Positions 1 to 45,621 of a DNA stretch of 64,000 nt are shown piece after piece (the first letter of the stretch is position 1; each line of letters begins with the position of its first letter). The notes beneath the pieces were generated by a model. That model had not been told where the DNA came from and searched no databases. It was given only the letters and a program-made list of their open reading frames with translations. This DNA is from an uncultured Planctomycetales bacterium (GTDB taxonomy: Bacteria; Omnitrophota; Gorgyraeia; Zapsychrales; Fredricksoniimonadaceae), in assembly GCA_964572155.1 (NCBI GenBank), contig CAZNDZ010000001.1, positions 207,300 to 271,299 on the forward strand, read 5' to 3'. The position numbers were made by a program, and so were the translations under genes.

Positions 1-3000
1 GTTTTTCCGCTGAATTTTCCCCATTTTCTGAAGCGGGAGTACCAGCTGGAACATTATTTCCTGAGACATTTAACGAATTATTGCGTACGGCGCCACTCGA
101 CAAAGTACTGGACGAAACACCTTTAGAACCTCTAGAAACAGTGCTTAACACACTATCCCCAGCAGGCTCTTTGGATAGACCTCGAGCGCTTACACCTTCG
201 GCAGTCGCTGTAGATACAGCTCTTGCACTTAGGCTAGATGCAGAACTTCCTATATAAACTACACCATCTTGTTTGGTACCTGCGGCATTGACCGAAGTCA
301 ATCCTGTCTGAGCTTGTGTTAATGCTGCCACCATAATGTCCTTGGACATTACAGCTCTTGCTTCTGCTACGATGCTACCAGTTTGGACATTAAACGCTGG
401 CATTTCTGCCGCGCTTGCATCTCTTATAAACAATGCTGCAACTACTGTACCTACTACGCGTGCTGCATTTGCTACTTTACTGACTACTCTACTTCTGATG
501 CTGGTGGACGTAGCTTGCGCTAAGCCACTTTCTGCTGTTTTCACAGAAACTACTGTTTTTGCTGCAACTGCTTGTACTGCATTCGCTTGTAAGTTTTCCC
601 CGTTTACTGCAACGTGTGCCGAAGCGATTGAGGAAATCGCTGGCACAGAGCTACGACCCGGGTCATGGCCTTTATCTGTTTTTACTAAAGTATCCCAATT
701 ATGTCTTCCTTCTAAATCTGCTCGCGTAATGATGCGATATGTGGTTTCCCCATAGGCGTTCGTGCCTAGGCCAAATACCATTGGCGGGCTGCCAAATCCT
801 GAGCCAGCGGCTGGTATTGGGACGGTTAAAGGCGTTACAGGTGTCACAGGCGCGGCTGTTGGTGCTACAGGCATGGTGGTGCTGGTATTGGTTGTGCCTG
901 TAGTAGCAGCTTGTGTTGCTGGTGCTGCGGTTGTGGCCGTGACACTGGGTTGTGCATTTGTTGGCTGATATGTAAGTCCAAGCGGCGCTGCTGGGCCAGT
1001 TAAGGCTCTTGGAGTTGCAGAAACAGTTTGGGTTCTTGGCGTTGCCGTTTGTGTTGTTGAAGCAAAGGCTTCTCCTGATGCTCTATGTTGGCTTTCTGGA
1101 GTTGCATTAACTGGTGTTACCGATGGCATTGCTCCTGTGCTAGCCATTGGTGCAGCAGCGGCAGGGCCGACTGGTGTTGGCATGCTTGGTGCCACAGGGC
1201 TTGCTGGAGCTGTTGGCGTGCTGACGGGTGTGCCAACTGGACCTGGTAAAATTGGTGTCTTTAAAAATGCTGGTGTGCCACCGGTACTGTCATCGTCGCT
1301 GTTCGTGTTATTGCTATTGGGCGACGCAGCTTTTTCCTCATCGCTTGGTGCTTTTAAGGATGTACGCAATTCATTGAGCTTGGTTAAGATAACCTTGGCG
1401 ACGGTGAGTAAGAGTGTTGATTCTTTCTCACTTAATTGTTGGATGGAAGCTTGTGTCAAAATGCTTGTGACTAAGCTTTGTATGCCTAACGCGTCTAGTG
1501 CATCCACTGGGCTTACAGCGCCATTGCTGCCGGCGACGATGGCCTTCAGATCTTCTGGTGTTAAATTATTGATCGCGGCTACAGCAACGCTGAATGCTTT
1601 CTCAGATTTCTTTACGTATTGTTGGAAATTGCCTTCTCTATATATGGCTTGCGCATCTTGCCACTTTTGGCCAGCGGAATAGAGCGGTTGTAAGGCGCGG
1701 ACGATATTGTTTTTGCCTTGGGCCTTGGCGGCATTGTAAATGGCCATGACGTTTGGCATGATGTCGCTGGTCTTAACGGTTACATCCGATGTTTCAAGGC
1801 CAATGGTGTTTAAGAACGCGATGACTTGTTCTTTAGCAGCATTCGCAGCTTGTACGTCGACGGATGGGCGTTCATTGTAGTTTGCAATATTTGTTGGCAA
1901 GATGCCGCTAATCAAGCGGGCAGCTTCATTGAACTTATCACCGTAGGCGGTCAATTTATTTAAGCCTTGTGGTGTGCCTTGTAAATCTTGGTCTGCTGGG
2001 ACAACTAAAGCTCTGCGGCTTGCAATCTCACCGTCGTAAGCTTTGATCACGGCGATCAAGTCGCTATTAGTGCCTTGCTTATCGTCTAAGATAGCAATGG
2101 CATCTTGCCTCATACGTTCAGCTGCTTCGATGCTCGCTTCATGCGCACGCCTGAACCATTCTGCAGCGCTTAAGTAAACTTTCAATAATTCCTGCATGGT
2201 GTTGCCATACCAGCCGGCGGATTCTTTAAAGAAGATTGGCGCTAATAATTCTTTTTGCGCTGGTGTTGCGATCTTCATCCACTCATTGATGGCTTTAGTG
2301 GAGTTTTCGTTTCTAAAGAAGGTCAGGATCGCATGCTTATATGAATTGGAACGTTGCAATAATTGGCGATATTCCGTAACAGCCTTTAAGCGTTCGATGT
2401 CGTCGCTGGAACCCGCTAAAGCTTTCACATTGCCAAGATCTGTCAACAAGCTTGCAGGAATACCTGACAAACCTTCGATGTTGGCGATTTCTTTTAAGAT
2501 GTACTCTAAGGAACGACCCACTTCTTGGGCGTCATAGAGAATATATTTATTACCCGTGTCATTGGCGTTACGAATGTTACGGTTGACGCCGTGGGTTAAA
2601 TCTGTTGTTGGCCAGCGTTGGGCATTGACGACGACGACGTCTAAATTACCCTTGAAACTAAATTGTTTAGCGAACATTGGCAGGGCTACATAAACAACGC
2701 CTGCTTGTGTGCCTTCGACAGCTTCGGTGACTAAATCTTTATTGGTGCCATCTAAGTAAACAGCTTTGAGACCATTGCTACCTAAATATGCAGTTAAGTC
2801 TTCGCCGGCTTTAGGACCATCGACTAAAGCTAATAAACGTGTTGAACTGTTTTGGCCTTGTTGAATTTGCCCTGCCAATTCCTTGACCTTAGCAAATTGT
2901 TCGCTCTCTGGAACGGCGATTGGCTCGACGTGTTTAATATGATCTGCCACTTGTTCAAAGACATTGCTTTCTTGGCCGATCCTGACAATTTCACCAACAC

Positions 3001-6000
3001 CCGTCTTGACTTGCAATAACGCTTCTGCGCCAGACAAGGTTGCTGATACGCCTGTCACATTGCCTTCGAAAATTTCCATGACTGGGTTTTCATCGGTCAC
3101 GTGAGATGTAACGACGATGTCTTCGGCCTTTAATTGATCTTCTGGATGTGCGGCATTGTATTTTAATGTTTGGACAATTTGATATGGCAATTGGCCAAAG
3201 ATTTGATCGAACAATGGACGGCCGGTTCTGTCATTTGGAACCAATTGGCGCTTGCCTTGTGAGTTTGTGCCCACGGTTAAACGCTGACCGATATTTTCAA
3301 CCAACCCACGCAAGATGCTTTCAACCAAATGACGATCGCTCTTGGCAAACTTCTTATATAAAGCTTCACTGACTAAGAAATCATTCTCGCCGGTTAAGCT
3401 GTTTGGAACCAATTGTTGATTGTTCCAAACCATTTCTTCTTTATGATCTAAGCCTTCCTTTGTTGGGGCGAACTTAAATTGCACTTCGCCGTTCTTCAAT
3501 AAAGCCGCATAGATCTTTTTAACTTGGACATACAAATCTTTTAAGACAACATTGTCCCCAACGCTTTCTGGCGCGGAACGGATGAACGTGGTTTCAAGCA
3601 AGATAACGTCGTCGATTTCATCAACGATCGTGACGCCAGCTTGTTTAATGTTATTGATACCTGCTAAAACTTCTGGGTTATCCTTAAATTGATTTGGCAA
3701 ATGGCCGCGTGGCGTTAATGAGATAAGCTTTAACGTGTCATTGTCATTTAAGGCATTGGCGACATCGTCTTCTCTGGCCTTGATTTGATCTTTGATCTTA
3801 TCTAAGGCTGTGCCCTTTGGATGTTGTTCATTTTGACTTGCTTGGTGCGCCTTGATCAAGGCGTCCATATTGGCTAACTTGAAGTCTTTACCGATGCGTT
3901 GTCCGACTTGTTCGGCCAAGGCTTGGAAGGTGATGCTGCCTTGAGGCACAATTGGTTCTTGGAAGAACTTGGTTAAATCGTTTTCTTCACGCACTAAGAT
4001 TAACGCTGGGGCGCCTGCGGCCATATAGCTTAAGGCGGCCATGAACTTAGATAATGATTTACCTTGCGCGTTTGGTGCGATCGCGATGTTCATCTTCACA
4101 AGCTCGCGGGCAATCTTGACTTGGGCTTTAAATTTATCCGCATCGAAATTGCTTTCGGCACCTAAGATACTTTCAACCGTATCAACAACTTGATCAAAGG
4201 CAACTAAAACAGCCTTGGTGTCGACAGACATTGCATGATCGCCCATGTTGAAGTTGTTGCGGCCGTTGGTCTTGATGACATACATGCGGGCATCAGCAAC
4301 CTTGATATGTTGTTCTAAAATCAAATTGCTTTCAGATAATGAGACATGTGTTCTGGCATTTTCTTGCTTATCAATGCTGCTAGTACCAGCGCTGATGGTG
4401 ATCATCCAACGATTTAACTTATATTGGCCATTGTTGACAGCGTCTAAAGCTTCACCAAGGTTAGCAAATTGTTGCTTCAAATCTTTCAACGCGACGGCAT
4501 TTTGTAAATGGATTTGATAGATCAACGCTTCATATGGCTTTGATGTGTCGTTACGATCTTGCTTACTCAACGCGTTTACGATATTTCTCTTATTTGATAA
4601 TTCAGGAACCGTGACATTGTCAGCGATGTGCTTGAGCAAACGGGTCATGAACGCTCTTGCATCTTCTGTATCGATGTTTGGCAAGACAATGACAAATTCT
4701 TCGCCGCCATAGCGTGCGACAACGTCGCTGGTGCGGGTGCGGTATTGTAAGGCTTGGGCTACGGCTTTTAAGACATTGTCGCCTGTGCCATGACCAAAGA
4801 CGTCGTTGACAGCCTTGAAATTATCCACATCAACACCGACGATCACATCGCGTTCATTGCCTGCGTTACGCACTTGGGCATTGATGATACGATTGAATGC
4901 TTTTTGTAAACCACCGCGATTAGTCAAGCCCGTTAAATTGTCTCGGAAGTTTTGATTGTCTGCTTGAGCTTCATACAAAGCCTTTGCCGTAATCACGTTG
5001 CCTGGCACGCCAGTGATTTCATATAACGTTTCTACGTCTTGTTCGCTTAAATGTTCAATGCTTTGTTTTTCTGGTGTTAAGAAAATGTATTGTCCTGGGT
5101 TTCCAGATGCTTTGATCATACGAATATCTTCAGCGCTAATGACTTCTTCAATGACTTTATCCTTATAGTAGGATGACAGCATTGGGTAGTTGGCAATGGC
5201 TTCTTTAATCAAGCGCTTCTCGCTGCCCGTGCTATAAGCTAAAACAGCCGTGATATTGTTGTCCTTGGCATAGGTCAATGTATCTGTCACAAGCTTGCCG
5301 ATCATCGCTGAATCAGCGTCGCTGACAATGCGACCTTCTTGGTTCATGGCAGTCTTTGTAACACTCATCGCTTCAGAAAGATTTAAGATGACAGGTGCTG
5401 TTGGTGGCATAACATTTGGAGCTGGCATCATTGGTGTTTCAGGAACGATGGCAGGCTCGCCGTTACCAAAATCATCGCCGAAGCTGTTTGGTGTATCTTG
5501 TTGTTGATCCATCACAGGCACTTGATATTGATCATCACTTGTCGCGGCTTCTGGCATGGTGATTTCTTGAGCGACAGGTTGTGCCACCTTGATCGCTGCT
5601 GGCTTAGCACGTTCGATCATCAATAAGCTCTTCACATCAGCAAAGCCCTTACCTTCGTTTAAGGCAGCGACAATTTCTTGGGCTTCAGGTTGAGCAATCT
5701 TCCAGCGCATGAACCATTGAATGGATGCTTGTGTGGCTTCCGCTTTTTCAGCTGCGTTCATTGCAGCATCCATACGTTCTAAATGTAAGGCCCTGTAAGC
5801 ATTAAATGTTTGGGCATCGACCGCTAAGATTGAATTCTCAGATGCTTGTTTCGTTGTGCTTTCAAAACCAAGTTGTGCAACAACCGCTTGCACAATTGCT
5901 TCGGTTTGATTGGCAATGTCTGCTGGCATTTCTTTAACATCTTCGGAATCATTATCGCCAATTAAGACAACCCCGATGATTTGTTCTAAGACACGTTGAC

Positions 6001-27000: not shown

Positions 27001-30000
27001 CAAATGTTAAGTCAAACTTTCTATAATTCTTCCTTGTTATATCTGCCATAAATTCATTGAACACGAACTGGCCGTTATTTTTATTTTGAATGGCTTCTAA
27101 ACGGAATGAATCTTTACCACCAAAACCAGACATAACACATTTGCCATCCTTACAATCAGCGCTGCTGATCATATTGATATCTAAATACTTTGGCGCGGAA
27201 CCATTTGCTATCGCTTCTGGTGCAACATCGTTTTCTGTGAAGAAGTGAGCGTAACCTCTATAATTAAGGCCCCAATCGCTCATTGATTGAATTTTTGAAA
27301 ATGCTGTTTTCCATGCAGGGGCAGCAGAGGCATCGTCTTTTGATTCAGGTTCCTTAATAGCAAGGACTTGAGGAGCACTAAATTCATTGTCGCCATTCTC
27401 TGCGATTGTACCGCTCAACAATGTTGGATTTATTTTTACTCCTATTTGAACTAAGCCTGCCATAACTACGGGCTTATTAATTACTGCAGACATCGGAATT
27501 TCGACAGCAATGGCTTTGATGTTGTCATAAATGTTGCTGGCTAAAGAAGATGAAATGTGATCATTACTGATCAAGCCTGGTTGGAATAAACGTTGTTGCC
27601 ATAAAGCAATAACAAATGCGCGTCTGTCATATGGTTTGCCTTCTGCGGCAGCTTGTGCTTTCAAATCTTTTTCAATTTGATTAGCTTTTAAAACCCAGTC
27701 AACATTGATGCCCGTAATACCTGCCATTGTATCTGCGTAAGCAACGAAGTTTTTACCCGAGCCCCAATTGCCTGTGCTTTGAAGATTATTGAGGTAGGGT
27801 GTGCCCCAAATCATTTCTAACCCTGGGGCCATCAAACCTTGAACGCCTTTTTCTTTATTACCACCTAAATCATCAACAAATGAACTCCAGAAACCATTTT
27901 TGGAAGCGACTTGCTGTTGTTGTTCAGGCGTTAAGTAGTTGTTATTAAGGTAATAGTTAAGCCCTGCTGCAGCTGCAGAAGAAGCAAAGAAAAATAGTGT
28001 TCTAAATTTCGCTTGTTTCTCGCGGTAAGAATAGGATTTATCGTCCTTTCCTATAATAGCTGATTGCAATGCCGTAAAACCAATCGAGAAAGCTCCTTGA
28101 ACAAGGCCTGTCTTAACAGCTTGCCCAACATTGCTTTTCCAAAAATCGCCCTTATCTCCCTTAAATAAATAATCAGCACTGCCTGTTGCCATCCACTGAT
28201 CTGCAGAGGCATTGGCGGTGTAACTCATGAATTGTCCGAGCGATTGTGATGCCAATGAATCAGGCTTAATGCCTGCCACTTTATAAGCAAACAAACGACC
28301 CGCCATCATCCCTAATTGACCCGCCATACCTGGGATTTCGGCTTTAAACGCTTCATTAAAGGCTGTCCCTATAGATTCTGGTGTCCAATCCGTTACTTTA
28401 CTAAAACTTCCCGTATAGGTTCGCGCATACACACCACGTAATTCAGGTTTTATAATGACAACATTTCCATTTTCGTCTAATTTGATCCCATCAAAAATTG
28501 CTGATTCGCGCTCGTACACCATTTGTACGTATGCTTCCTTGGATATTGGCTTACTACCAACGGGATTCTTTGCGCCCTCGACATATTGATCCTGTGCTCT
28601 TAAAGTTGCATCGACATCTCTTTGCGCCATCAAATGCGCTTCTAAAGCAACGCCTGAACCTTCAGTGACCTCGCCTTTATCATTTAAAACATATCCGCCA
28701 GTGGCCTTGCTCTTCGCTTGTTCTGATGTCCCAAAACCAAACAACTTTCCAACTTGATATTTGCTAACACCATTTTCATCTGTTGTTGCTTGATCAAAAG
28801 CCGCGCTGCCAACTCTTAAAACAACATTAGATGCAAGTGAAGAAATCGCAGACACCAAGAAATCCTTCAAAATGCCCTTAGATGCGCTGCATTCTTTATC
28901 ACCACACATCTTCTTTGTAATAGCATTTGTAATCGCCAACTTAACAGCCCCTGTCGCACCACCTGCCACAAAACCAACAGCAAACTTTTGATAGAAATTT
29001 AATTTGGGAACAACCGCTGCATTCATGTTGCTACTACCAACCATTACAGGAGCTGCCTGAGTAACACCGCTCATGAAATCTGGCGTGACTGCTACATCCA
29101 AAGGAGCCAATGTACCCGCTTCAATAACACCACTAGACATCGGACCACCAACCACAACATCACCACCACCCTTTAAACCATCAATGAAATTACCCACCGC
29201 CTCTTTTAATTGATCCCACATTGAACCTATTGATGAGGTTGCGCTTGATGCAGCTGTATTAGTTGGAACTGTTGGCTCTGGGGTTAACCCCATGCTCAAG
29301 CCCATGCTTAATGCGGATGACAAAATAAACGCGCCACCTGCACTACATGTGCCGTTTTGAACGCAGATTGTTGCGATGGTTTGAGTGAAACTTGAAATGG
29401 CTAAACTTAAGGCAATGTTGCCGCTTCCGATCCCTGGGATAAAAGAACTAACGGCCGTAATCGCCAAGTTCATGAAAACCGTGCTGTCCTTAACAAACCC
29501 TGGTAATTCATTACTTCGATCACGCCATTTATCACCCCATGCAAAAGCTTGGAGGGCTTTTGGAATGTATTCGAAATCGAGACCTTCAATTGTCTTTGGA
29601 TCTGGCGCGTAGGCAACGCCATCTAACTTGGCTTCTAGTGTTGCACGGTCAAGGATTTGGCTTTGGCCTAAATCCATCACAGTCACTTTATCTGCAGTGA
29701 CTTTTTGGACTGTAACGAAATGTTCGCCTTTTAAGTGAGCAATGAAAGGTGTGTTTAATTTTAAGACATCTTCGCGAGCTGTTTTAACGCTGACATAATT
29801 TAATCCCAACGCATTGCCAACTTTGTTAATGGCAAAAAGGGTGCTCTTTAATTTTGGTTCGCCAACTTTGATCAAGTCGCTCATCAAATCGGTTGCGATA
29901 GTTAAGACCGCTAATTCTTCAACCGAGCGATTTTTGTTTTGGCTATCAGCAATGTCTTTTAAACTAAACGTTGCGCAGTTGATGGGATGAACTTTTTCGT

Positions 30001-30457
30001 CGTTGATCCAATTGACAATCGCTTTGATCTTTTCTTGATCGAATGCTGTCTTGGTTTCAAGCGCTAAGGCGTTTTTCTTTGAGGCATCTAGATTAATTAA
30101 AACATTAATGCCATCTTTGTTATTAGTATTATTAGATAATTGATTTAATAAATAGCGGACAGAGTTGCCAACTTGTGGCGCGGCTGTTTGTGGAGCATCC
30201 ATCCCTGGTTCGACAAAACGCACAACACCGGCGCGTTCGCCCCAGAGAACATTTGGATTATAATTAAACGCCCAGCTGACCTGGTCGGGAATAAAGACTG
30301 TTAAGACGAGAAGTGCGACGGAACGGATCCATAAATTAAAACGGCTTTGAGGAGCAGGTTCTTCAGGGACAAAAACAGCAACGTCCGAAATGGGCTGTAA
30401 ATTTTCGGAAACTTGCTTGCCTTGTTCTGGGTTTTTGTTTTCCCCGTCGTGAATCAT
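1..30457 (-). CDS. Giant multidomain membrane-anchored protein, partial (>=10,152 codons in window; C-terminus beyond window start)
   Basis: ATG at 30457 (minus) gives MIHDGENKNPEQGKQVSENLQPISDVAVFVPEEPAPQSRFNLWIRSVALLVLTVFIPDQVSWAFNYNPNVLWGERAGVV... Hand translation at 30457, ~29650, ~17270, ~16830, ~11590, ~5040, ~4100 and ~1260 all fall in the same register (upper codon position = 1 mod 3) with no stop. The ORF track shows no minus ORF >=65 aa anywhere in 1..30460. That is only possible if one minus frame stays open and lacks an in-window stop. No SD precedes the ATG; an alternative TTG sits at 30502 just after an in-frame TAA (30509-30511). Confidence 0.85.
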   Translation of the reverse strand, partial: MIHDGENKNPEQGKQVSENLQPISDVAVFVPEEPAPQSRFNLWIRSVALLVLTVFIPDQVSWAFNYNPNVLWGERAGVVRFVEPGMDAPQTAAPQVGNSVRYLLNQLSNNTNNKDGINVLINLDASKKNALALETKTAFDQEKIKAIVNWINDEKVHPINCATFSLKDIADSQNKNRSVEELAVLTIATDLMSDLIKVGEPKLKSTLFAINKVGNALGLNYVSVKTAREDVLKLNTPFIAHLKGEHFVTVQKVTADKVTVMDLGQSQILDRATLEAKLDGVAYAPDPKTIEGLDFEYIPKALQAFAWGDKWRDRSNELPGFVKDSTVFMNLAITAVSSFIPGIGSGNIALSLAISSFTQTIATICVQNGTCSAGGAFILSSALSMGLSMGLTPEPTVPTNTAASSATSSIGSMWDQLKEAVGNFIDGLKGGGDVVVGGPMSSGVIEAGTLAPLDVAVTPDFMSGVTQAAPVMVGSSNMNAAVVPKLNFYQKFAVGFVAGGATGAVKLAITNAITKKMCGDKECSASKGILKDFLVSAISSLASNVVLRVGSAAFDQATTDENGVSKYQVGKLFGFGTSEQAKSKATGGYVLNDKGEVTEGSGVALEAHLMAQRDVDATLRAQDQYVEGAKNPVGSKPISKEAYVQMVYERESAIFDGIKLDENGNVVIIKPELRGVYARTYTGSFSKVTDWTPESIGTAFNEAFKAEIPGMAGQLGMMAGRLFAYKVAGIKPDSLASQSLGQFMSYTANASADQWMATGSADYLFKGDKGDFWKSNVGQAVKTGLVQGAFSIGFTALQSAIIGKDDKSYSYREKQAKFRTLFFFASSAAAAGLNYYLNNNYLTPEQQQQVASKNGFWSSFVDDLGGNKEKGVQGLMAPGLEMIWGTPYLNNLQSTGNWGSGKNFVAYADTMAGITGINVDWVLKANQIEKDLKAQAAAEGKPYDRRAFVIALWQQRLFQPGLISNDHISSSLASNIYDNIKAIAVEIPMSAVINKPVVMAGLVQIGVKINPTLLSGTIAENGDNEFSAPQVLAIKEPESKDDASAAPAWKTAFSKIQSMSDWGLNYRGYAHFFTENDVAPEAIANGSAPKYLDINMISSADCKDGKCVMSGFGGKDSFRLEAIQNKNNGQFVFNEFMADITRKNYRKFDLTFGDGQSFGLTEKDEESKAKFTTNANEAIRNAKGQVVLGGSSINEGFQRDLGLAGVNIIDRQIIGTQELTNTYSKNPLTGISGDILKIYDSSNNGAYGGQWDQNDPKKARNGATQVVSLGGGEASWIQSDLNEANGQMSKGWSYKASTDSFNQFGFLKVNGKMTDVSEKLYGVKNKLSAMTEDAGEFDPAIVAAINKSKGSILEGINQEVLSAIYSEDSVKFVNSMKGVNATRQTMNYGAGESETNSNVFSLTGTLENGKDPNKGRVYSSLLTFSPSFEKNNDLTVVRSRGEGVGDTSVYMPNLSGSQYARIDGVNINGNRRTGGEIIGGQVLTLSNGKNGFIKETPDVIAMMSDVNYKQNKTDLSEAAVPADEYGKNLSKAAGSDGSVAERALLEGKSARGLASFSQGDASVDDKGNWRFIYNDATGTFVDNKDGRPEMFTATAGGTFDVNGKSYNQRMVIGENGVFTNHGVFRYKDAQGKEDVLTGTNSDYSFNGAIAKATNQYVVVGKDGSVNRYNLNGSDVSKSQLSEQFAKGGEENVLPALISGSAPTIRFEKGFKKESKLVDDVSVFGPQGLEAKLKQETKIQSEVEQELVLTATGDKREAGSAIEGFNTVAGKVKNIAGSVYLDGVQTAILMPHVKKVMEDGERSNVYETNAAFITRDGKKTLGSRWDMINLTKNSYYLKIAADQKGGTGGASTLEKNENDPNTLVKLDGSLNANGEYTPVQVNGVNDKKVATEFLGKYSGQYEDNRMSGAGLTDGYLGFTDDWSKGTNSLAQDTHYIRILSDNNLARADGSVLMTNAKEGRPQIGVDIIDGKWFVDHGTLTKIPNKFDIKNGAIKTFIIAKYLDYKPTLVLSKSFDATETDRKKAYDTTLSKFTVEANGGPDSYMFMEDNGDVFVPAWMRGVKAYGTEQQINSKNGKTLNAKLDGFKRDGSGLVSKSWILGTGDVSDKNVTNKKPSEEKSNSKAVAAVNGITIDQNLEANPSDKNNPLKAKANPLSVIENNLANPKFKAKNVNVLGIRGGIGDEAVYSTVSIKDLRNAKKPTNVNGVEEAGVLNVANAVLNSNSTTSKLFFKIGDGSLTHDLSQTKAFTLSRNVTEAAPLNSQRDTVVKDEAKGVDLTVKSNVDLARKAGEADALVMLIDMPTYMTPTGSKVIGGHLQLLGTESLVARVNNLTVDGQTIIAGQDGKKWTNMNIVEPLNVNSKGAFTGLIDTNFNLSEAKAGDFNVTSGKIETFTPQTTNAQGLMTGLSGVYDAKAVGLGFLTTDDEWKAAGNTDTRGRAWGFRFIGSLADTSTINTKPTDPTSTQKPENKVEQVLKQKFETFGLTKEEAYKALAGQGYGIHNIKDVELTKMADGKVGVNILYEKSAMKSSFAVIDAKGIPQEEGKPKVSEKDYVAKARLVTPDYALLTGDGSVNDKGKKNELLVAFNQENGSFSSTAGTATKVDYNNAVYGFSAQDGDKVNHVMYRMNEDKYGNVSFALQNVAVTNASGSANNDLSGYYSGKDVKVITGTDINSGQHKVLVVAKDDSFLRQYFKGSDSLEEGEFTRRANQAFDLTTGKAITAPMTIKTGDNEYWSVLAHDVFKERTQFSQFFTDGYKGEGRQTIFKDRLRNYFGASEQLGDSLDVSNISILGGANAALVLAGGVGMVTKGVAATANAAKAMPLANALEGGISARLLTGAAQDILKASVASEISGTGKLVTSANAISNLGKTAIVGNVAGFGLGGVIGGVNMYANGASFDDAMVTAVNVAKANGVFSGGLAFAARGVAGADGWIATTKLLNNDTRFAKFLVNDSMAASTLRTIGSAIPSSLGGAAINTLRGGIDYNGSWSDYFTSQNFAKDAGVGLALGAGFGTVKALAAAKNVGVSPWVNGAGYGAISVGGGLINDGGEYTFSKLGRDLAIGTLTGRYLVNGASTWAGSNLFRQTAARFGTKEAIATKELSNSIPAIAKIKDSAFYKAVSPTLSQPIVAGSAIGGGVGALTWARSDEQGVESFLKYTAGGAAIGAIAGSGALRYAFSHPTIINAAGQKTPAILSKTQIAAQVGTGMGLGATAGFAISFADAKLKGADVLDSRRLNHMLYGAVAGAGLSSLSLMRQGMNNWAQTGKWSSSPVGDMSMLQRIAQNPMIVPRLSVVGATDFGLMMPAWSMIDVPVRVIANGGTVESAYQEHFATNLMTGQAIEPGDLMKKLARDVSGGMEMGRTIGVLLPLGQMPLKAFTEGASKYEAQAYNFIATKGHALPITILQLDATENIAHSVLVKDKDLQKRLRDEGVELAKIQGYTNALDIEYSADAYAAAKIQEKAQTIAFYSLMLKPAGATEAQTAIADARLAMSQGRSIDAQSSINRAMALSGKNNTEAEFLNYTNSLSRATELEKTATTATSDKKADINKQAQDIRDTAYKTLMDKVASITGTEARGDALTLAALAEGAKAADLVSRGFTAEVADKNPNIANVTGPTLAVAATEVGLAYRAQDNYLEQAANAYQGKLGALGKLNAGYTNIQQFKNAIPVERIVNQIRYAASQNKFEDMAKFAKELIAIPEHAVRGNLLLAQAKTRNIEALKKENATTNKTEIERLQTEAVVALEAANKNLAESKNRDDINNVTQRADILTQQAQIESARNESSTEAGIKFLGERISIAPKDAAAYIAKIKILSNNPAEGGRISIDAVVETAKKNGANHIETISRLAAQESSTYYQRSIRTLLEHRVRDSKHLEQAISLATEGLSRDESNLSLRLMRASAMMERSGGRETAEIRQDLDVAQKQLDGISLFESPQLKSTLNTLEGQLAIREGAARPENEAGEFYTKAYEHFSKAVEVEGNSATAGQLYNKALALHLVEASGLKIEAAQPVDAILREAIAKEDSKTDLQIRQLQVLRGDVAVVAIGAKDNSIQKADDTQRRASAAEIVDVANQSEATSVRTLNDKQGNPTTVIRYYKNADAAQMLGKDGAFVVLSHPDGIREVIIVAKDSNAALHEMRELRATRGIELAENGSIKNLDASTMDLLGLKQTPEGLKSNKDPHDIAAAMYGASAQRGVSESRAPPKELPSDVRVVNIGAADNALVATPVRESTEARQQQKLAKTEVEALIGRFTARDARNTLTTDIVAKTIGLAGHGDTRGEVVKTEDIYMQGFGVEAPKLATKEAREQAIAETKLREEAEFRALQVVNTPTYDVTKIVERALQEYRKSKGESTQAAAEKPTPQTKEEQSFVKAVRTKLETKQSGSKQTTGEIMHTFFKNWHETLAKPAKDFKGLEFNAGQTAVVERLIDFTLSSKPKDSAMMAAILNMGGGKTDIVDQLMPIIKSNTDKQVILVTQDNLTSKYEKDEYRDGFEVSTIKSVGDKFEINDPSKVIVMSYTQAKMVDLARKTVEGGSKEVNPFKNAIVFADEAHLFYTSPAMIIGGSHDAGVAKVREWDERVVDGAKIKERERDTFGALVRIMGNLDKLMRASGPANLQKNTPNKKQGIRTLSDSHELSKDMMDALWKESAKDIQTYFGAESVEKPESFARYAEAAAWLHRAIENKTIRFEVKDDGRVLVYDPYEITANGERALNRLFSDKDGVNALAKVILAHYANEKASGTELAGGSLKILENGRINDNGLQLWARHVDGKESVKSTGADVLELVRASGGRTVMLTGSPGESTQAMRNMGTEFYQLHEAPKFKDFEYKVRVMALPSDKAGNVDLAYEAALKDVAKRYQEAYERGENDTALLINTSMLTSLIDRYRLEKDGGEAKIKSFLESAGIKADDIFIYKPENATDGVGKAVGATMKERVGTIEIKQADVNQYRKANGGMSYETALKAVAAKAAREKIGQMVVLTSMTEGVNPTFGRNMKLDVRVEKVDGSVEAKSVVVDNVIQAKHVIIGARAESSLLQTMARFGSYVKDSIFDRANKRTNAKETEVLLLLDADIHLSDAQKARLDRIQQSKAPVAQKQIELRKQLEIIAQERSEDLAIRGSMDVVVEAAVNKAVAQTEQVNRERAIAHNTENVAGQHEQIVDGKTVRVRENQALIHRSDGTALIVDKNPVAITEKTTDRYVVVGANKVTFDSNQSFGDYGQVTLENSVWDKETGKVYSLEEWNRSDTPVFSHIITEQDVLRTNADKGFDVNTASTEKRLVMIAVKPEGADYVGQYTSQVVDTNTNQTFEITRQAIYNANYHGVKFGPEVTITQKDTNKEIVNTTTYRATPGSVQGTKEEYLTLHNIENDAVEAVLMEGQLMRLADKARLETTAKLRVFFDKERGGDDLVIRREWSFDQATKKLKNEKTTLVNPGRSLRNDLVAFESTDKLERKDNNSNHEQIWEVKAKNGDIKAILINGAVARVSNDSNGQKVAVQAKYATKAVVSYEGKNVTVSLPTEHRYEFSTENNTWQDKEVVVATSAFEDFKAGDVIKNGGVYSDTGKLKAVKFIDQIATIDAAGDVVIPDTNIWQSNLQTLGFDPKTVAQQGMKIASKEMIAKIKTYEDDLRYANQRRDVLSGNENAAPEPLAELIFKIKEVTARHGIDSVVTIDGAPVENVKNAAELVQHLKTLPADKKGSMPVLEFKNNNGVNNRLAGMIRTLMGQNVTENGFREQAEQQFYLADEAQPEQKDAVIAEAKQQVEALLQNKNMRVAFDPSMEMKNSAGLADNKTLSLGTNAMLYVLGMGWKVAEAGVPDHEIAHIFDRAARMAKVAPMIAGPSRVDIHNDLNKGLNRGIYNTQGYALGEIYTHIIEGSGKLQNAYRAKELGDEEGFNTFTKEAAKVFERSRNIAAASYQAATGALTVVEQALDKPETDSLIDIHADSETADVVDHANELLDAKIKVLDNQQAPLYDFTLKLPWMYQDRKVVDMDRTEQLKLAKEMLRKTVGMMEHKTALGDILVQVTQKYINDPAMSKLLENVRYSRLTEKDTQTLRMAAAVLKNNVDPVVEELDGSRTFKIKTNGTVNTVNIDKDGQIASVTGDPKVLENEMKDTFADVKAEYAAALHKQSDIWKKVQELADAETISAISTDPPKDKKTFEATAKQIAEGAKAIQAYRIADNIYGFIVDDRIGRQMFSRAEVHQEGQGNEYEAGDIVPAALAGTVGFAGENLTTQTVVAYLNDAKRGNHELTRQEKNFTSLLVNNGLIKETDGKWTVEKPAALFAAHVNAENPDVKNVQIVFAHEMIHSFEAVDPQNEAANKKSIKELQAKAVVPMVDAQGKSVKDQDVNLMDVARNFLVLQGYNPNDTQLIERELPAWLADVATMQERVRAYQENKRSVKELQAVLPLIQPEYAAKWKEIEQVFVKNHQDAVERNALNQKMQKDAGLKPVVAAIRQTTVQPQSATAFTPKTYEAKAGDALLSEETVKATIMKMAPTPTQKELGVTAVNYEVKGTLQPVIQSIVVNGTEISPAAFDKIVKAAYPNIKIMQTSNAAMAAVLNDSNDEENVLNAVVPSSVGVVNINTPASNSEQRIKFVEKVSFKEQVTFLAEKFGLDNGLDAFTVRNAKRQIAISPEAAEKALGGKVARIYEKVIQEQTFTVADIEALPTGKLIKSNLARLPNREEQIKFLDNVAVRLGKTPNSVNILNTLKTRPTEENTAFAAWEDIDLTTPLRSSKDNAMVTERDVEHAAGLIYAFRLPKAQETRAIQITSGYGGKPIQENVVQGLLSAFNSADKGTKEIMMAIVEHADAFSNDKLYSEASKIPADKDTKNNVANLIYNNLTKIKNLGERNRISHEIAARALTNLAILKGFPVEVVERFKPVVVDRIAETVPAQLEATTTQGPLTLNDVEVLSVSAPDKKDQLFYRTRLNLYRNAITEEGKQAVIAALEEKLGQKIEVEKPQAQMMADAKQPAVKPGTDDKNRTQRILQIGAIALAAGLAGNSQTIVDGKTAVVPASGNANVAVYDISKPEPTFIGNVIEKTEAVAQAIKESSKGVIEQGDKTLLATKEASQRILDRAAEIKERSQSVRAKIGAAIKEHTLPITLAVAGLMLAVTAWTARVRNKQEPKERTTTEPKFADTKPNFEDTTPNQPKTLAEHNAAAKAQKDMLGRYLTLAKDTGIYKAIIDDVDIRIKLGVMPKATDDQVIAALKATNKKDEIKELIAMKTSLHLVEKVPTKDLKEISKIFAQTAMNDLRALKPEIKVIDQTSVPAILKVNENDRQAIEKAIKVVSGINNPVERLKAEASFPALVELRVKNGIQKWAAQLLNDQKLIEQFAKDNVFVTYREEGIIEKLQMMTGKKFSNDEKQIITQHIKEIRQRDEVMDLWDATRSNPTKENTKAFNKLVLSELAARPSLLKAVLIEASQEIFANSVVYSDTDIDSKIAIPLTLKVARIISDQDELTANVKAIKQLTDSLKTNNEFKSATEKRRKEIFRALVTTLPAYTEQSTANQAMAALKNLLGIEDAATVKPDISETKRVTFAGIISNAFKAPKANVDSAMAPEINREKVTNVAFIKNATPKQLERAILATGLDLWIANNIFEQIQNVRTKGPEAISTVLAGYPALENNDFIKSVTLDGVVEAATFDVNKKAYFAEHNVPVDGDEGKAGIQKVTYEITTSGDVKPVAYKLDTNHPIVVKNRKMFNKVSGNLVFTPEQLASLYKVLKSAEGIDQEVIGKTLAKLNVDQAMIMPEVVTIKGIDEKVLRSTSLDKLKVIFRNMGINDSSRLNIIVEQIRSARSNNIANIMPLLTPYAELNQTTITQLKFNDKAVDVVYVPKTNQYEANYVVPESSEESQAGVQSIDYKVTLDARNQPIVVVDAYNFTKNAQINASLENILKGTIQPNVNVWKVKPAQLAPVFGSLMENAKKHALETLPAIVNVARKAASVHNDTLLAESVRLRSEKQAAPQKDYAQIAPREFKNLRAEVKRADPTISDKSYFNLLMKIGPDFAQTAKTVREQVRAQILDNASIARVLATFDRAQANLDRHNNRAQPVRKEKAQVGSSVVTSSGGITDKWADDKTWVEYKLGKMTDAAMKVQEFYNHRTLKLFGKDFTEADNFAQDVDFTALFELRTYLREQFAPLAWNNKQAIVASLVAMGKGLEKLQYTDRQRVLEQIIGVVLIGDNDSEDVKEMPADIANQTEAIVQAVVAQLGFESTTKQASENSILAVDAQTFNAYRALHLERMDAAMNAAEKAEATQASIQWFMRWKIAQPEAQEIVAALNEGKGFADVKSLLMIERAKPAAIKVAQPVAQEITMPEAATSDDQYQVPVMDQQQDTPNSFGDDFGNGEPAIVPETPMMPAPNVMPPTAPVILNLSEAMSVTKTAMNQEGRIVSDADSAMIGKLVTDTLTYAKDNNITAVLAYSTGSEKRLIKEAIANYPMLSSYYKDKVIEEVISAEDIRMIKASGNPGQYIFLTPEKQSIEHLSEQDVETLYEITGVPGNVITAKALYEAQADNQNFRDNLTGLTNRGGLQKAFNRIINAQVRNAGNERDVIVGVDVDNFKAVNDVFGHGTGDNVLKAVAQALQYRTRTSDVVARYGGEEFVIVLPNIDTEDARAFMTRLLKHIADNVTVPELSNKRNIVNALSKQDRNDTSKPYEALIYQIHLQNAVALKDLKQQFANLGEALDAVNNGQYKLNRWMITISAGTSSIDKQENARTHVSLSESNLILEQHIKVADARMYVIKTNGRNNFNMGDHAMSVDTKAVLVAFDQVVDTVESILGAESNFDADKFKAQVKIARELVKMNIAIAPNAQGKSLSKFMAALSYMAAGAPALILVREENDLTKFFQEPIVPQGSITFQALAEQVGQRIGKDFKLANMDALIKAHQASQNEQHPKGTALDKIKDQIKAREDDVANALNDNDTLKLISLTPRGHLPNQFKDNPEVLAGINNIKQAGVTIVDEIDDVILLETTFIRSAPESVGDNVVLKDLYVQVKKIYAALLKNGEVQFKFAPTKEGLDHKEEMVWNNQQLVPNSLTGENDFLVSEALYKKFAKSDRHLVESILRGLVENIGQRLTVGTNSQGKRQLVPNDRTGRPLFDQIFGQLPYQIVQTLKYNAAHPEDQLKAEDIVVTSHVTDENPVMEIFEGNVTGVSATLSGAEALLQVKTGVGEIVRIGQESNVFEQVADHIKHVEPIAVPESEQFAKVKELAGQIQQGQNSSTRLLALVDGPKAGEDLTAYLGSNGLKAVYLDGTNKDLVTEAVEGTQAGVVYVALPMFAKQFSFKGNLDVVVVNAQRWPTTDLTHGVNRNIRNANDTGNKYILYDAQEVGRSLEYILKEIANIEGLSGIPASLLTDLGNVKALAGSSDDIERLKAVTEYRQLLQRSNSYKHAILTFFRNENSTKAINEWMKIATPAQKELLAPIFFKESAGWYGNTMQELLKVYLSAAEWFRRAHEASIEAAERMRQDAIAILDDKQGTNSDLIAVIKAYDGEIASRRALVVPADQDLQGTPQGLNKLTAYGDKFNEAARLISGILPTNIANYNERPSVDVQAANAAKEQVIAFLNTIGLETSDVTVKTSDIMPNVMAIYNAAKAQGKNNIVRALQPLYSAGQKWQDAQAIYREGNFQQYVKKSEKAFSVAVAAINNLTPEDLKAIVAGSNGAVSPVDALDALGIQSLVTSILTQASIQQLSEKESTLLLTVAKVILTKLNELRTSLKAPSDEEKAASPNSNNTNSDDDSTGGTPAFLKTPILPGPVGTPVSTPTAPASPVAPSMPTPVGPAAAAPMASTGAMPSVTPVNATPESQHRASGEAFASTTQTATPRTQTVSATPRALTGPAAPLGLTYQPTNAQPSVTATTAAPATQAATTGTTNTSTTMPVAPTAAPVTPVTPLTVPIPAAGSGFGSPPMVFGLGTNAYGETTYRIITRADLEGRHNWDTLVKTDKGHDPGRSSVPAISSIASAHVAVNGENLQANAVQAVAAKTVVSVKTAESGLAQATSTSIRSRVVSKVANAARVVGTVVAALFIRDASAAEMPAFNVQTGSIVAEARAVMSKDIMVAALTQAQTGLTSVNAAGTKQDGVVYIGSSASSLSARAVSTATAEGVSARGLSKEPAGDSVLSTVSRGSKGVSSSTLSSGAVRNNSLNVSGNNVPAGTPASENGENSAEK
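760..1320 (-). repeat. Pro/Thr/Ala/Val-rich low-complexity linker in the giant protein
   Basis: Minus-frame translation ...KTPILPGPVGTPVSTPTAPASPVAPSMPTPVGPAAAAPMASTGAMPSVTPVNATPES...TATTAAPATQAATTGTTNTSTTMPVAPTAAPVTPVTPLTVP... The plus ORFs 762..968 and 1137..1682 are its Gly/Ala/Val-rich antisense shadows. Confidence 0.7.
3600..4100 (-). other. RecA-fold-like P-loop NTPase segment (DnaB/KaiC/RadA-like Walker A 'APNAQGKS', Walker B 'TIVDEID') right after the GGDEF domain
   Basis: Verified translation ...ELVKMNIAIAPNAQGKSLSKFMAALSYMAAGAPALILVREEND... About 100 aa later comes ...QAGVTIVDEIDDVILLE... The pattern resembles DnaB 'AARPSMGKT...SLEMS'. The assignment is tentative. Confidence 0.3.
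4230..5010 (-). other. GGDEF diguanylate cyclase domain (GGEEF active site 4694-4708, RxxD I-site) inside the giant protein
   Basis: Verified translation: ...LTGLTNRGGLQKAFNRIINAQVRNAGNERDVIVGVDVDNFKAVNDVFGHGTGDNVLKAVAQALQYRTRTSDVVARYGGEEFVIVLPN... Every hallmark of the GGDEF fold is present in canonical order: LTGLxNR, DxDxFKxxND, GHxxGD, RxxD and GGEEF. Confidence 0.85.
11582..11596 (-). other. HExxH zinc-binding-type motif (VFAHEMIHSFE) in the giant protein
   Basis: Direct translation of the complement of 11561-11600: ...QIVFAHEMIHSFEAVDPQNEAANKK... The motif alone is weak evidence for a zincin-like metallopeptidase. Confidence 0.25.
15500..17300 (-). other. Superfamily-2 helicase-like ATPase module (Walker A GGGKT and DEAH box) embedded in the giant protein
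   Basis: Verified by direct translation: ...FNAGQTAVVERLIDFTLSSKPKDSAMMAAILNMGGGKTDIVDQLMP... (Walker A, complement of 17121-17140). About 93 aa downstream: ...AIVFADEAHLFYT... (DEAH, complement of 16829-16840). Downstream helicase-C-like strings (MLTGSPG, VVLTSMTEGVN, QTMARFG) are from mental translation only. Confidence 0.5.
20400..22200 (-). other. Gly/Ala-rich hydrophobic region (glycine-zipper-like) of the giant protein
   Basis: Translation ...GGANAALVLAGGVGMVTKGVAATANAAKAMPLANALEGG...GFGLGGVIGGVNMY...AIGGGVGALTWA...VAGAGLSSLSL... The plus ORF 21519..22151 (210 aa) is its antisense shadow. Confidence 0.35.
22200..28000 (-). other. ~1,900-aa Asn/Gly/Thr/Ser/Asp/Lys-rich region of the giant protein, predicted beta-rich and extracellular or adhesin-like
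   Basis: My own minus-frame translation is dominated by short polar and beta-branched runs (e.g. ...GSVNRYNLNGSDVSKSQLSEQF..., ...TGTDINSGQHKVLVVAKDDSF...). I saw no long exact repeats. Composition was judged by eye, not computed. Confidence 0.3.
29350..29530 (-). other. Cluster of additional hydrophobic (probable TM) segments after the peptidase domain
   Basis: Mental translation gives ...STVFMNLAITAVSSFIPGIGSGNIALSLAISSF... and ...GGAFILSSALSMGLSMGL... The plus ORF 29385..29612 is the antisense shadow. Boundaries are approximate. Confidence 0.35.
29640..30000 (-). other. C39-like (papain-fold, Peptidase_C39_2-type) cysteine peptidase domain in the giant protein
   Basis: Hand-translated ...EKVHPINCATFSLKDIADSQNKNRSVEELAVLTIATDLM...LNTPFIAHLKGEHFVTVQKVTADKVTVMDLGQSQ... 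This matches the NCGP[TA]SLxM...HxVVVxGxD...VxxxDP order of C39-like domains: Cys in INCATF, His in GEHFVTV, Asp in VMDLG. Confidence 0.45.
30286..30343 (-). other. N-terminal transmembrane anchor of the giant protein (LWIRSVALLVLTVFIPDQV) after a ~38-aa polar N-terminus
   Basis: Direct translation of 30241-30457: a hydrophobic 19-residue stretch flanked by R and D. No cleavable signal-peptidase motif, so a signal-anchor is likely. Confidence 0.6.
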
Positions 30458-30724
30458 AACTGAAATATAACATATTATATGAACATTGCCAGTTTTTGGC
30501 AAATTATTTTACAGATTTATTCTGTTTAGTATCAACGACTTACGTCCCTTTCAAAATATATTTTAAAATACTTTACAAAACGTGGATTTTATGCATAAAA
30601 AAGTATCTATTTTTAGATATTTTGTGTGTAAAAACATAAAAATAAGTAATAAGATTTTATAAAATCTCTAACTTAGCCTCTCTTTTCTAGATATTATTTA
30701 TTAAAATGCTCTTTAATGGCCAAA

Positions 30725-36225: not shown

Positions 36226-37164
36226 TTAGTTGCCACCCAGCTTTTTAAGCGGGTTATTTTGGAAGAAGTCTAAGAAAACAGGTCCGGCAACCAAGATCCC
36301 AACCACTGGAAAGATAAACAAAAGTAATGGGATGAGCATTTTAAGTGGGGCTTTCATGGCCATTTGTTCGCCGCGGCGAAATCTTGCTTCGCGCATGTCT
36401 TCGGATAAGATGTTGAGCGCTTCACTGACTGATGTTCCCATGCGGTCAGCTTGGATGAGCGTACGCGCAAAAGTGGATAAATCTGGTAAATCATATTTGC
36501 GGGCCATGTCACGCAATGCGTCGCGGCGTGGTTTGCCGACATTGATCTCTTGGATCATGTTGCGCAATTCTTGGATGATCACCGTCGGCGCAGATTTTTC
36601 AATCACATATTTTAATGCCATCATAAAATCAAGACCTGCATTAACGCAAAGCCCTAAAAGATCGACGGTGTCAGGCAAATCGCGCACCATGGCATCGCGA
36701 ATTTTGCTAATCTTCGACTTGAGCCAAAAATCTGGCAGGAAATAACCAGCACCAATCGCGACAAAAATACCCATCATAAAACCTTCGTTGCTGGGCTCGA
36801 TAAAAATAAACACAACCCAAATCAACGCAAAGATCATAGCTTCTTTAAGCAAGATAAACTCTTCGGGACTAATCGGCACGCGTGCCATGCTTAAATCCTT
36901 CGCGATGCGTTGACCCAATGCTCCGACGACAAATGGCTTATTAAACACCGCAAAACGGGTGCTCATGTCTGAAATAACAAAGGCTAACCCTGTTTTCTTA
37001 GCTGTTCTGCTTTGTGGCGCGGCAATGCCTGTAACGGCAGGATCAGCCATGGGATCCATGTTTAGCGTCGGACGAAATACAATTTTAAACGGGATAAACA
37101 TGAGGCCTATGGCCATCACCGTCATGAACGCAAACAATAATCCAACAAATAATAAAGCTGACAT
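36226..37164 (-). CDS. tadC: Tad pilus inner-membrane platform protein (T2SS-F domain), TadC-like
   Basis: 312 aa with an N-terminal TM, a cytoplasmic T2SSF-like domain (...DLPDTVDLLGLCVNAGLDF...) and C-terminal TMs. It follows a TadB-like gene, in the usual tadA-tadB-tadC order. Confidence 0.7.
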   Translation of the reverse strand: MSALLFVGLLFAFMTVMAIGLMFIPFKIVFRPTLNMDPMADPAVTGIAAPQSRTAKKTGLAFVISDMSTRFAVFNKPFVVGALGQRIAKDLSMARVPISPEEFILLKEAMIFALIWVVFIFIEPSNEGFMMGIFVAIGAGYFLPDFWLKSKISKIRDAMVRDLPDTVDLLGLCVNAGLDFMMALKYVIEKSAPTVIIQELRNMIQEINVGKPRRDALRDMARKYDLPDLSTFARTLIQADRMGTSVSEALNILSEDMREARFRRGEQMAMKAPLKMLIPLLLFIFPVVGILVAGPVFLDFFQNNPLKKLGGN

Positions 37165-43709: not shown

Positions 43710-43712
43710 AAC

Positions 43713-44440: not shown

Positions 44441-44543
44441 ATCATCTCTAAATTTGCTTGAATATTATAAGCCCTAAAGGGGGGATATCGCTATCCCCCC
44501 TTATAAGACTTAAGACACCTCTTAACAAAAACACCTTAAGAGA

Positions 44544-44876: not shown

Positions 44877-44893
44877 TACAACTCCTCCTTGTA

Positions 44894-45262: not shown

Positions 45263-45285
45263 ATATTTCCTCCTTATATGGGAAA

Positions 45286-45588: not shown

Positions 45589-45621
45589 ATGTTCCTCCTG
45601 AAAGTAAGTGGGTTGCTTTGT

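Follow-up and report, generated by a model that had tools for sequence, protein, structure and literature searches.

An open reading frame of at least 10,152 codons next to a Tad-like locus: a member of the Omnitrophota giant-protein family and its possible membrane-tethered role

Is an uninterrupted reading frame of more than 30 kb one genuine gene, and if so, what might its product do? This question is raised by a 64,000-nt stretch of metagenomic DNA, hereafter the window (positions 207,300 to 271,299 of the forward strand of contig CAZNDZ010000001.1, GenBank assembly GCA_964572155.1, labelled as an uncultured Planctomycetales bacterium and placed by GTDB in the Omnitrophota), whose left half is filled by a single minus-strand open reading frame (ORF) that lies directly after a Tad-like pilus and secretion locus. 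Giant Omnitrophota proteins are among the largest predicted in biology and, to our knowledge, none has a demonstrated function. A preliminary description of this DNA had read the ORF as one giant gene cut off by the edge of the window, had placed it in an Omnitrophota-like host and had evoked a role in attack on, or attachment to, other cells. We thus analyzed the coding character of the frame, the domains and relatives of its product, and the genes around it.

A single uninterrupted coding gene

In the minus-strand frame whose upper codon position equals 1 mod 3, we found zero stops from position 30508 down to position 1, the closing stop on the upstream side being at 30509-30511. This stop-free gap measures 30,511 nt, while the runner-up across the six frames of the window measures 4,074 nt. 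It comprises 10,169 sense codons, of which exactly 10,152, as the preliminary description had counted them, run from the first ATG (30457) to position 2, with one base over (giant ORF, 2..30457, minus strand). As the frame is still open at position 1, the ORF runs off the window and its C-terminal end lies outside, again as had been described. The only alternative start is a TTG at 30502, and homologues align with the protein from residue 1 of the ATG 30457 start. Read in its two other frames, the same strand is interrupted by 683 and 1,012 stops over 10,151 codons. A chance open frame is therefore excluded, the probability of a stop-free run of this length being about 1e-300. A reassignment of stop codons was also considered and rejected, given that no stop interrupts the ORF even when all three stops of the standard bacterial code are counted, and that the neighboring genes terminate normally.

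Codon statistics likewise support a single gene. The codon frequencies of the ORF correlate with those of 15 neighboring genes at r = 0.91 in frame, compared with 0.24 and 0.04 out of frame, and the correlation per block of 1,000 codons stays between 0.76 and 0.90, with the exception of the last 152 low-complexity codons. Codon log-odds, sampled in one 300-codon window per 500 codons plus the 3′ end, were positive and the best of the six frames in all sampled windows, with a minimum of 0.14 bit per codon in the final, low-complexity 300 codons.

An open frame of this size could in principle be an assembly artefact, in which unrelated sequences were concatenated and stayed in frame by luck. Metagenome assemblies can indeed be chimeric, GC content is elevated in positions 1-2000 of the window, that is, in the last 2 kb of the giant gene, and the independent assemblies that we found reach only its first 14.3 kb or less. 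However, the absence of any stop in 10,169 codons is beyond chance, codon usage is uniform and resembles that of host genes, and a scan of the DNA of the giant gene found neither tandem nor dispersed repeats. The 5′ sequence was assembled alike from two separate sequencing runs, with 100% identity across window positions 30108-42844 in the Logan assembly of SRR10036058 and 1 mismatch in 21,122 nt across 20978-42099 in that of SRR30545106, in whose contig the gene call for the giant ORF extends over 4,777 aa, until the contig stops. Further inside the gene, a related protein of 7,198 aa (P0032) matches aa 38-545, 2952-3373, 5757-5896 and 8757-9446 in the same order, and two short protein fragments from other samples (P0018 and P0027) match internal parts of the product at 81-95% identity. 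The rise in GC at the left edge is accounted for by the Pro/Thr/Ala-rich linker that is encoded there. A chimera is thus very improbable. These results show the ORF to be a single, intact and truly coding gene for a protein of at least 10,152 aa, as the preliminary description had proposed, and its product to be non-repetitive, self-BLAST of the protein having found no internal repeat at E ≤ 1e-3.

Upstream of the start codon, a 29-nt match to a sigma-70-like promoter (TTGCCA-17-TATAAT, 11/12 consensus positions; 30474..30502, minus strand) ends 17 nt before the ATG, in the final part of the AT-rich, 470-nt intergenic spacer. As a match to the consensus it is no proof of a working promoter; the mRNA of the giant gene might have a very short leader. 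By eye, no obvious Shine-Dalgarno sequence is seen between the promoter match and the ATG.

Domains of the product and its family

We ran Pfam on overlapping 1,200-aa tiles covering all 10,152 residues, and it recognized only two domains, Peptidase_C39 and GGDEF. The first belongs to an N-terminal module that begins with a hydrophobic helix detected by hydropathy (aa 40-60), followed by the sequence QVSWAFNYN (aa 59-67), whose columns are invariant in 16 homologues (helix and motif, 30257..30340; this and all further features of the giant gene are on the minus strand). The Peptidase C39-like domain occupies aa ~150-290 (29588..30010), its profile match (PF03412, E = 1.6e-9; score 38 bits, cut-off 22) spanning aa ~203-282. 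In the alignment of the 16 homologues, the putative catalytic residues Cys161, His246 and Asp262 are invariant, as are N160/C161, E245-V250 (EHFVTV), WG 307-308 and Cys365/Cys371. The latter two conserved cysteines fall in an uncharged hydrophobic stretch of 69 aa (aa 325-393, 29279..29485), which offers room for 2-3 membrane helices. The whole protein contains seven cysteines, all within its first 1,500 residues. The C39 domain shares its Pfam fold and its Cys/His/Asp triad with the C39 domains of bacteriocin/RTX ABC exporters; unlike these, it is not fused to an ABC transporter and is placed after an N-terminal hydrophobic helix.

The second Pfam domain is a GGDEF diguanylate-cyclase domain at aa 8505-8735 (4253..4945; PF00990, E = 2e-31 for the match at aa 8505-8621). 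Against PDB sequences, this region matches 47 diguanylate cyclases with E values down to 1e-17, and PDB sequence searches of the giant protein returned diguanylate cyclases only. The domain carries GGEEF at 8584-8588, an RxxD I-site (RTSD, 8575-8578) five residues upstream and the usual metal-binding motifs, and it holds an insertion of ~55 aa ahead of its last third. Judging by these motifs, it looks catalytically competent.

Immediately downstream lies a region (aa 8750-9540) which a family profile and an AlphaFold model describe as a divergent SecA-like ATPase with two RecA folds, the module itself being placed at aa ~8770-9540 (1838..4150). SecA is its best match both by sequence profile and by fold, with Foldseek alignments of 830-920 columns against SecA chains of 700-810 residues. 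Walker A (AQGKS, 8797-8801), Walker B (DEIDD, 8946-8950) and an arginine motif resembling motif VI (NRNIR, 9292-9296) are conserved across the family. The predicted two-RecA DEAD motor, with its Walker A GK[ST], Walker B DE and arginine motifs, is thus shared with the SecA and SecA2 translocase ATPases. In contrast, identity to these proteins is just 10-16%, Pfam SecA_DEAD does not match the module, SecA motif V (GRGTD) is replaced by AK..F.G, and the module forms part of a much larger membrane protein whereas SecA and SecA2 are soluble proteins of ~900 aa. We therefore call the module SecA-like on the strength of its profile and model, and do not treat it as a SecA orthologue. Related modules are likewise poor in Pfam domains, and none of the 85 fetched loci contained a canonical secA that could have been used for comparison.

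Part of the ORF also resembled, by eye, a second SecA-like module. The region at aa 4400-5060 (15278..17260) displays the motifs GGGKT (4441-4445) and DEAH (4540-4543), and none of our tests supported the SecA-like reading. BLASTP of the region against the verified SecA-like module and Pfam at E ≤ 10 returned nothing, alignment to the SecA-like profile by hhalign reached a probability of 0.3%, and a phmmer search of the PDB returned only noise. A local hmmsearch hit the expected place with a nonsignificant E = 0.07, a single-sequence AlphaFold model was unusable (pLDDT, the predicted local confidence score, of 38), and a homology search with aa 4301-5100 found no homologue at E ≤ 1e-5. A second SecA-like module is hence not supported, and the region is kept as a P-loop NTPase candidate.

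We then considered how widely this protein is distributed, searching the N-terminal alignment against species-representative genomes. The N-terminal module (transmembrane (TM) helix, QVSWAFNYN and C39) occurs in at least 77 species genomes, nearly all titled Candidatus Omnitrophota or Omnitrophica, and QVSWAFNYN, used as a search pattern, recovered 77 loci. Ca. Zapsychrus, Ca. Aceula and Ca. Omnitrophus are represented, together with some metagenome-assembled genomes (MAGs) that carry the loose label “uncultured Planctomycetales,” and one locus each with a Caldithrix and an Elusimicrobia label; the best N-terminal match among the 77 reaches 59% identity over aa 1-588. At the protein level, 16 clear relatives of the N-terminal 1,200 aa were found (E 3e-147 to 2e-14), mostly “partial” C39 proteins of Omnitrophota MAGs. 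The GyrB encoded in the window is 84% identical to its best match in named Omnitrophota MAGs, and the organism-named matches listed among the best 120 are all Candidatus Omnitrophota or Omnitrophica, except for one Elusimicrobia label at 70%; an identical GyrB is also recorded in NCBI and Logan, on a contig of 1.34 Mb. Both the GyrB matches and the titles of the genomes that carry the N-terminal module thus agree with the Omnitrophota-like host proposed in the preliminary description.

The related loci also resemble this one in their organization. Where at least 9 kb follows the ORF start (45 loci), the reading frame is still open at the far end of the fetched sequence in 43, over ~3,700 aa or more and for more than 10 kb; where enough upstream sequence is available (57 loci), TadB/TadC homologues (46-67% identity) stand directly upstream of the giant gene in 51. 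Conservation within the protein falls sharply beyond ~aa 400; collinear islands persist, and the sequence between them is not conserved. Locus L007, for instance, matches aa 2900-3523 at 44%, and L002 matches aa 31-1027, 1902-2439 and 5757-6021. Toward the 3′ end, a search of genome and metagenome contig collections with aa 8760-10152 returned no locus. In one relative (P0019), over 2,600 aa follow the SecA-like module, and the giant gene may therefore be considerably longer than 10,152 codons. Another relative, of 4,551 aa (P0021), carries a DUF3179 domain (residues 3601-3781, E = 1.4e-27) downstream of its SecA-like module, so that the content downstream of the motor varies among family members.

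These features correspond to what has been reported for Omnitrophota giants. West-Roberts 2023 (bioRxiv 10.1101/2023.11.21.568195) described giants in which an N-terminal C39 domain near signal peptides is combined with many TM helices, with divergent forms of the SecA DEAD and preprotein-binding domains, and with GGDEF. The upstream locus in that report comprises more than 10 genes, including gspD/E/F, rcpC, a Rotamase_2 peptidyl-prolyl isomerase (PPIase) at its head and small class III signal-peptide genes, while pilZ genes are found downstream of the giant genes. Nielsen & Lui 2026 (bioRxiv 10.64898/2026.06.07.730766) reported C39 and SecA_DEAD architecture clusters, and T2SS (type II secretion system)/Tad genes flanking 13 of the 14 largest giants. 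The present gene is alike in its ORF of more than 10,000 aa, its C39 domain next to a TM segment, its SecA-like and GGDEF domains and its few recognizable domains, and its ~10 hydrophobic segments may correspond to their TM helices. Its upstream locus is alike too, with a Rotamase_2 PPIase, rcpC, a gspD-like secretin, a gspE-like ATPase, small class III genes and two gspF/T2SSF genes. It differs in that its SecA-like module is detected by a family profile or structure model and not by Pfam. The giants of the “archaeovorin” type, defined by glycosyltransferase, methyltransferase, glycoside hydrolase, NUDIX and HEAT domains, have no counterpart here in 10,152 aa (Pfam E ≤ 0.1), nor do those of the “dockerin” type, with dockerin and TSP3 repeats, since neither such Pfam matches nor internal repeats were found in the visible protein. 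The 39,678-aa ORF of Velamenicoccus archaeovorus LiM, which we compared by its description only, is similar in its Omnitrophota host and, if the hydrophobic segments seen here are membrane helices, in its multiple TM helices.

Based on these alignments and shared architecture, the gene belongs to a phylum-wide and already described family of Omnitrophota giant proteins. It exemplifies a described oddity and opens no new category, while offering a clean, non-repetitive specimen, with its 5′ part reproduced independently and its position by the origin and a Tad-like locus, that shows the family core: an N-terminal TM/C39/hydrophobic module, a SecA-like ATPase with conserved motifs, and GGDEF. 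The preliminary description had considered proteins of this size extremely rare in bacteria, which holds in general but not within Omnitrophota, where giant ORFs of more than 20 kb occur in 77 of 116 Velamenicoccia species (Seymour 2023, PMC10066038) and where Nielsen & Lui 2026 counted 916 proteins of at least 10,000 aa in their own genomes, and clustered 5,761 when NCBI MAGs were included.

Topology, rival readings and a proposed mechanism

A Kyte-Doolittle scan of the giant protein revealed ~10 uncharged hydrophobic segments in three clusters, at aa 40-60/325-393/783-803, at aa ~2780-3220, and at aa 6972-6992/7084-7104. The last two form a helix pair (9146..9544), of which the second is the strongest TM candidate of the protein. 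Two long blocks, aa ~3220-6970 and aa 7105 to beyond 9700, contain no such segment. We propose that the ~10 segments would anchor the protein in the inner membrane and that these two TM-free blocks, about two thirds of the visible protein, would face the cytoplasm, because these blocks hold the GGDEF and SecA-like domains and, if real, the P-loop candidate, all of which depend on nucleotides of the cytoplasm. The stretch at aa ~800-2780 would then be the main candidate for a large exported block. Within it, a conserved island at aa 1347-2444 (23126..26419; tblastn identity of 24% to L008 and 26% to L002, with no match in Pfam or PDB) lies between the segments 783-803 and 2783-2806 and, as the largest block for which this is conceivable, possibly outside the cytoplasm.

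In this arrangement, the SecA-like motor may thread extracytoplasmic segments belonging to the same giant protein, or partner proteins, across the membrane, an activity that West-Roberts 2023 had also suggested for the motor of such giants. The GGDEF domain would provide a local source of cyclic di-GMP (c-di-GMP), and the C39 domain might process the giant protein or a partner. The assembly might work with the adjacent Tad pilus and secretin at contact with a host or prey, as proposed for V. archaeovorus; we suggest this joint role because the position of the gene after the Tad genes is conserved. A similar placement was reached for the “TM-only” class of Nielsen & Lui 2026, which was read as membrane-anchored with most of the chain on the cytoplasmic side. 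We consider an Omnitrophota giant-family gene with a membrane-tethered, largely cytoplasmic, Tad-linked mechanism to be the best explanation overall, with a probability of about 70%. Several points weigh against it. Its topology is inferred from a crude hydropathy scan, and missed helices would alter the assignment of inside and outside. The P-loop candidate at aa 4400-5060 is an unverified, motif-based assignment, and the giant gene itself is known here from its sequence. The C-terminal part beyond the window could hold adhesin or enzyme domains that would change the picture. Finally, co-transcription with the Tad genes is unlikely, because an opposite-strand AAA_14 gene and the 470-nt spacer intervene.

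The same protein could instead be mainly an extracellular coat or weapon, displayed mostly outside the cell as an adhesin or as a wall-degrading “archaeovorin.” Such a role was proposed for V. archaeovorus and by West-Roberts 2023, and, in the account of Kizina et al. given by Seymour 2023, peptides of the 39,678-aa ORF were enriched in attached cells. It would fit with the adjoining Tad pilus and secretin, with the N-terminal helix resembling a signal anchor, and with the TM-free block of ~2,000 aa (aa 800-2780), which has no recognized fold and could be exported; the expected domains could also sit in the C-terminal part outside the window. In the 10,152 visible residues, however, Pfam finds no glycosyl hydrolase or transferase, lectin, dockerin, discoidin, HEAT, TPR or Ig-like repeat, the PDB matches are confined to diguanylate cyclases, and internal repetition was not found. 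Moreover, the domains that require ATP or GTP lie in the TM-free blocks that make up about two thirds of the visible protein. The recognizable SecA-like ATPase and GGDEF domains are nucleotide-dependent and hence probably cytoplasmic, which suggests that much of the protein is inside the cell and bears directly on the idea of an extracellular coat or weapon. We thus regard a mainly extracellular protein as unlikely. The role in attack or attachment evoked in the preliminary description accordingly keeps its standing as a proposal of the literature, and finds no adhesin, lectin, dockerin or carbohydrate-active domain to support it among the 10,152 residues searched with Pfam and the PDB. The classical bacterial giants, namely nonribosomal peptide synthetase (NRPS) or polyketide synthase (PKS) megasynthases and repetitive RTX/Bap/LapA-type adhesins, represent most bacterial proteins above 5,000 aa outside Omnitrophota. 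Here, Pfam finds no condensation, adenylation, KS (ketosynthase), AT (acyltransferase), carrier, RTX, cadherin or Big domain and self-BLAST finds no repeat, so that the repetitive-adhesin, NRPS and PKS readings were rejected for the visible 10,152 aa and carry next to no weight.

Another reading, which is compatible with a membrane-tethered, largely cytoplasmic protein and does not exclude it, is that of a polyprotein cut into smaller functional proteins by its own C39 domain, perhaps together with an HExxH module. The invariance of the C39 triad in the 16 homologues is in line with this reading, and the same idea was raised by West-Roberts 2023. In one relative (L002; JGI 3300009777, Ga0105164_10000021, 10001-23756), the N-terminal module is a separate ORF of 1,251 aa, followed, after a gap of 285 nt, by an ORF of at least 4,628 aa in another frame, and early stops, at 116 to 2,265 aa, are also found in 4 of the 77 loci (L015, L044, L059 and L077). 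Such split ORFs suggest that the modules can function as separate chains. On the other hand, cleavage sites are not identifiable from the sequence, the C39 domains of ABC exporters cut short double-glycine leaders rather than polyproteins, and the split ORFs are possibly sequencing or assembly errors in MAGs, the L002 split being either a true split gene or a frameshift error. Processing of the whole protein in this manner is therefore a doubtful, if conceivable, addition to the membrane-tethered protein that we favor.

A more speculative extension, which we put forward only tentatively, is that the protein is not a surface weapon but a mostly cytoplasmic, membrane-tethered mega-platform, in which the SecA-like motor (possibly two) and the GGDEF domain would link local c-di-GMP signalling with the ATP-driven threading of the exported segment of ~2,000 aa, or of substrates of the Tad system. 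If true, the mega-platform would be an autonomous secretion and signalling machine in one polypeptide, dedicated to the neighboring Tad pilus. Three fragments lend themselves to testing, namely the putative ATPase at aa 8750-9540, the putative cyclase at aa 8505-8735 and the putative peptidase at aa 150-290.

Further elements of the protein deserve mention. A conserved island at aa 5757-6021 (12395..13189) contains an HExxH motif (HEIAH, 5803-5807) that is retained in P0032 and L002, from which a metallopeptidase role may be inferred, and a second HExxH motif (HEMIH, aa 6288-6292; 11582-11596) coincides with a sub-threshold Reprolysin_2 match (E = 0.08). A Gly/Ala-rich hydrophobic island at aa 2783-3523 (19889..22111), with ~4 candidate membrane helices by hydropathy and no Pfam or PDB match, is conserved from ~aa 2900 (44% to L007, 29% to P0032 and 25-30% to six further loci); a membrane pore and an oligomerization module are both possibilities. 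Near the left edge of the window, a Pro/Thr/Ala-rich low-complexity linker (aa 9720-9890, 788..1300) is followed by a Ser/Ala/Val-rich tail that runs to the edge.

The Tad-like locus and its surroundings

All flanking genes but one have the same orientation as the giant gene. From the right edge of the window, they are an edge-open ORF, dnaN, gyrB, gyrA, a GST gene, a nitrilase-family hydrolase and a malate/lactate dehydrogenase, then a Rotamase_2 PPIase, RcpC/CpaB, a secretin, a CpaE-CpaF fusion, a DUF192 protein, a 493-aa protein and eight small genes, and finally a 463-aa protein, a Cys-rich 1,158-aa protein, two T2SSF genes, a 1,352-aa protein, an AAA_14/DUF4143 gene, the spacer and the giant gene.

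The SurA-like PPIase (Rotamase_2; 52806..53735, minus strand) heads the secretion locus, whose core of a ParA-like and T2SSE fusion ATPase, a secretin with TonB_C and RcpC/CpaB spans 47989..52785 on the minus strand. CpaE/TadZ and CpaF/TadA are normally two separate proteins; here, a ParA/MinD-like part of the CpaE/TadZ type and a T2SSE part of the CpaF/TadA type are fused in a single ORF of 728 aa (47989-50175, minus strand). The secretin (50156-51910, minus strand; Secretin and T2SS-T3SS_pil_N) carries a C-terminal TonB_C in the same ORF, an unusual combination through which the outer-membrane channel could be connected with peptidoglycan or the inner membrane. Two genes with T2SSF domains (36226..38027, minus strand; PF00482), upstream of the giant gene, would encode a TadB/TadC-like platform.

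Eight tandem, paralogous small genes (63-136 aa; 43383..46052, minus strand) have N termini of the Flp/TadE-type class III prepilin kind, with a K[AG]Q[SN]x[VL]EY motif followed by a hydrophobic helix, their Pfam matches to Class_IIIsignal, Flp_Fap and TadE all being below the cut-offs. Eight is an unusually large set of pilin-like genes for a Tad locus. The 463-aa and 1,158-aa proteins have N-terminal helices like those of these prepilin-type genes. The latter (38366..41842, minus strand), which occurs upstream in most related loci, starts with a hydrophobic helix and contains 39 Cys, often in “C..NP...PSP.C” repeats, a composition that suggests a disulfide-rich exported protein of the pilus-tip or TadG-like type.

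The locus shares RcpC/CpaB, an RcpA/CpaC-type secretin, CpaF/TadA, TadB/TadC and candidate Flp/TadE-like prepilins with the Tad systems of Caulobacter (Cpa), Aggregatibacter (Tad) and Bdellovibrio-like predators. It differs from them in the CpaE-CpaF fusion, the TonB_C of the secretin, the eight pilin-like paralogues and, in most relatives, the giant gene that follows. No prepilin peptidase was seen in the 64-kb window either, in which the other Tad components (RcpC, secretin, CpaF/TadA, TadB, TadC and Flp-type candidates) are present.

The 1,352-aa protein encoded between TadC and the giant gene (32104..36162, minus strand) has a signal peptide and an internal duplication (~aa 640-960 and 975-1290), and it is followed by the AAA_14/DUF4143 ATPase gene (30978-32099, plus strand). 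Because just 2 of the 77 related loci have the 1,352-aa protein upstream, the two genes together look like a lineage-specific insertion, the AAA_14 gene not having been searched for in these loci.

At the other end of the window, dnaN and the edge-open ORF occupy 61581-64000 (minus strand). In the identical Logan contigs, the gene upstream of dnaN is dnaA, followed by yidC-jag-parA-parB in the opposite orientation, so that the window would abut the replication origin; the cumulative GC skew shows no switch inside the window. The giant gene thus starts ~33 kb from dnaA/oriC, directly after the Tad-like locus. This locus lies ~11-28 kb from dnaA, compared with 12-30 kb of the chromosome for the Tad locus of V. 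archaeovorus LiM (Seymour 2023). Between gyrA and the GST gene, a tRNA-Glu(TTC) gene (56288-56362) is encoded on the plus strand, opposite to the surrounding genes.

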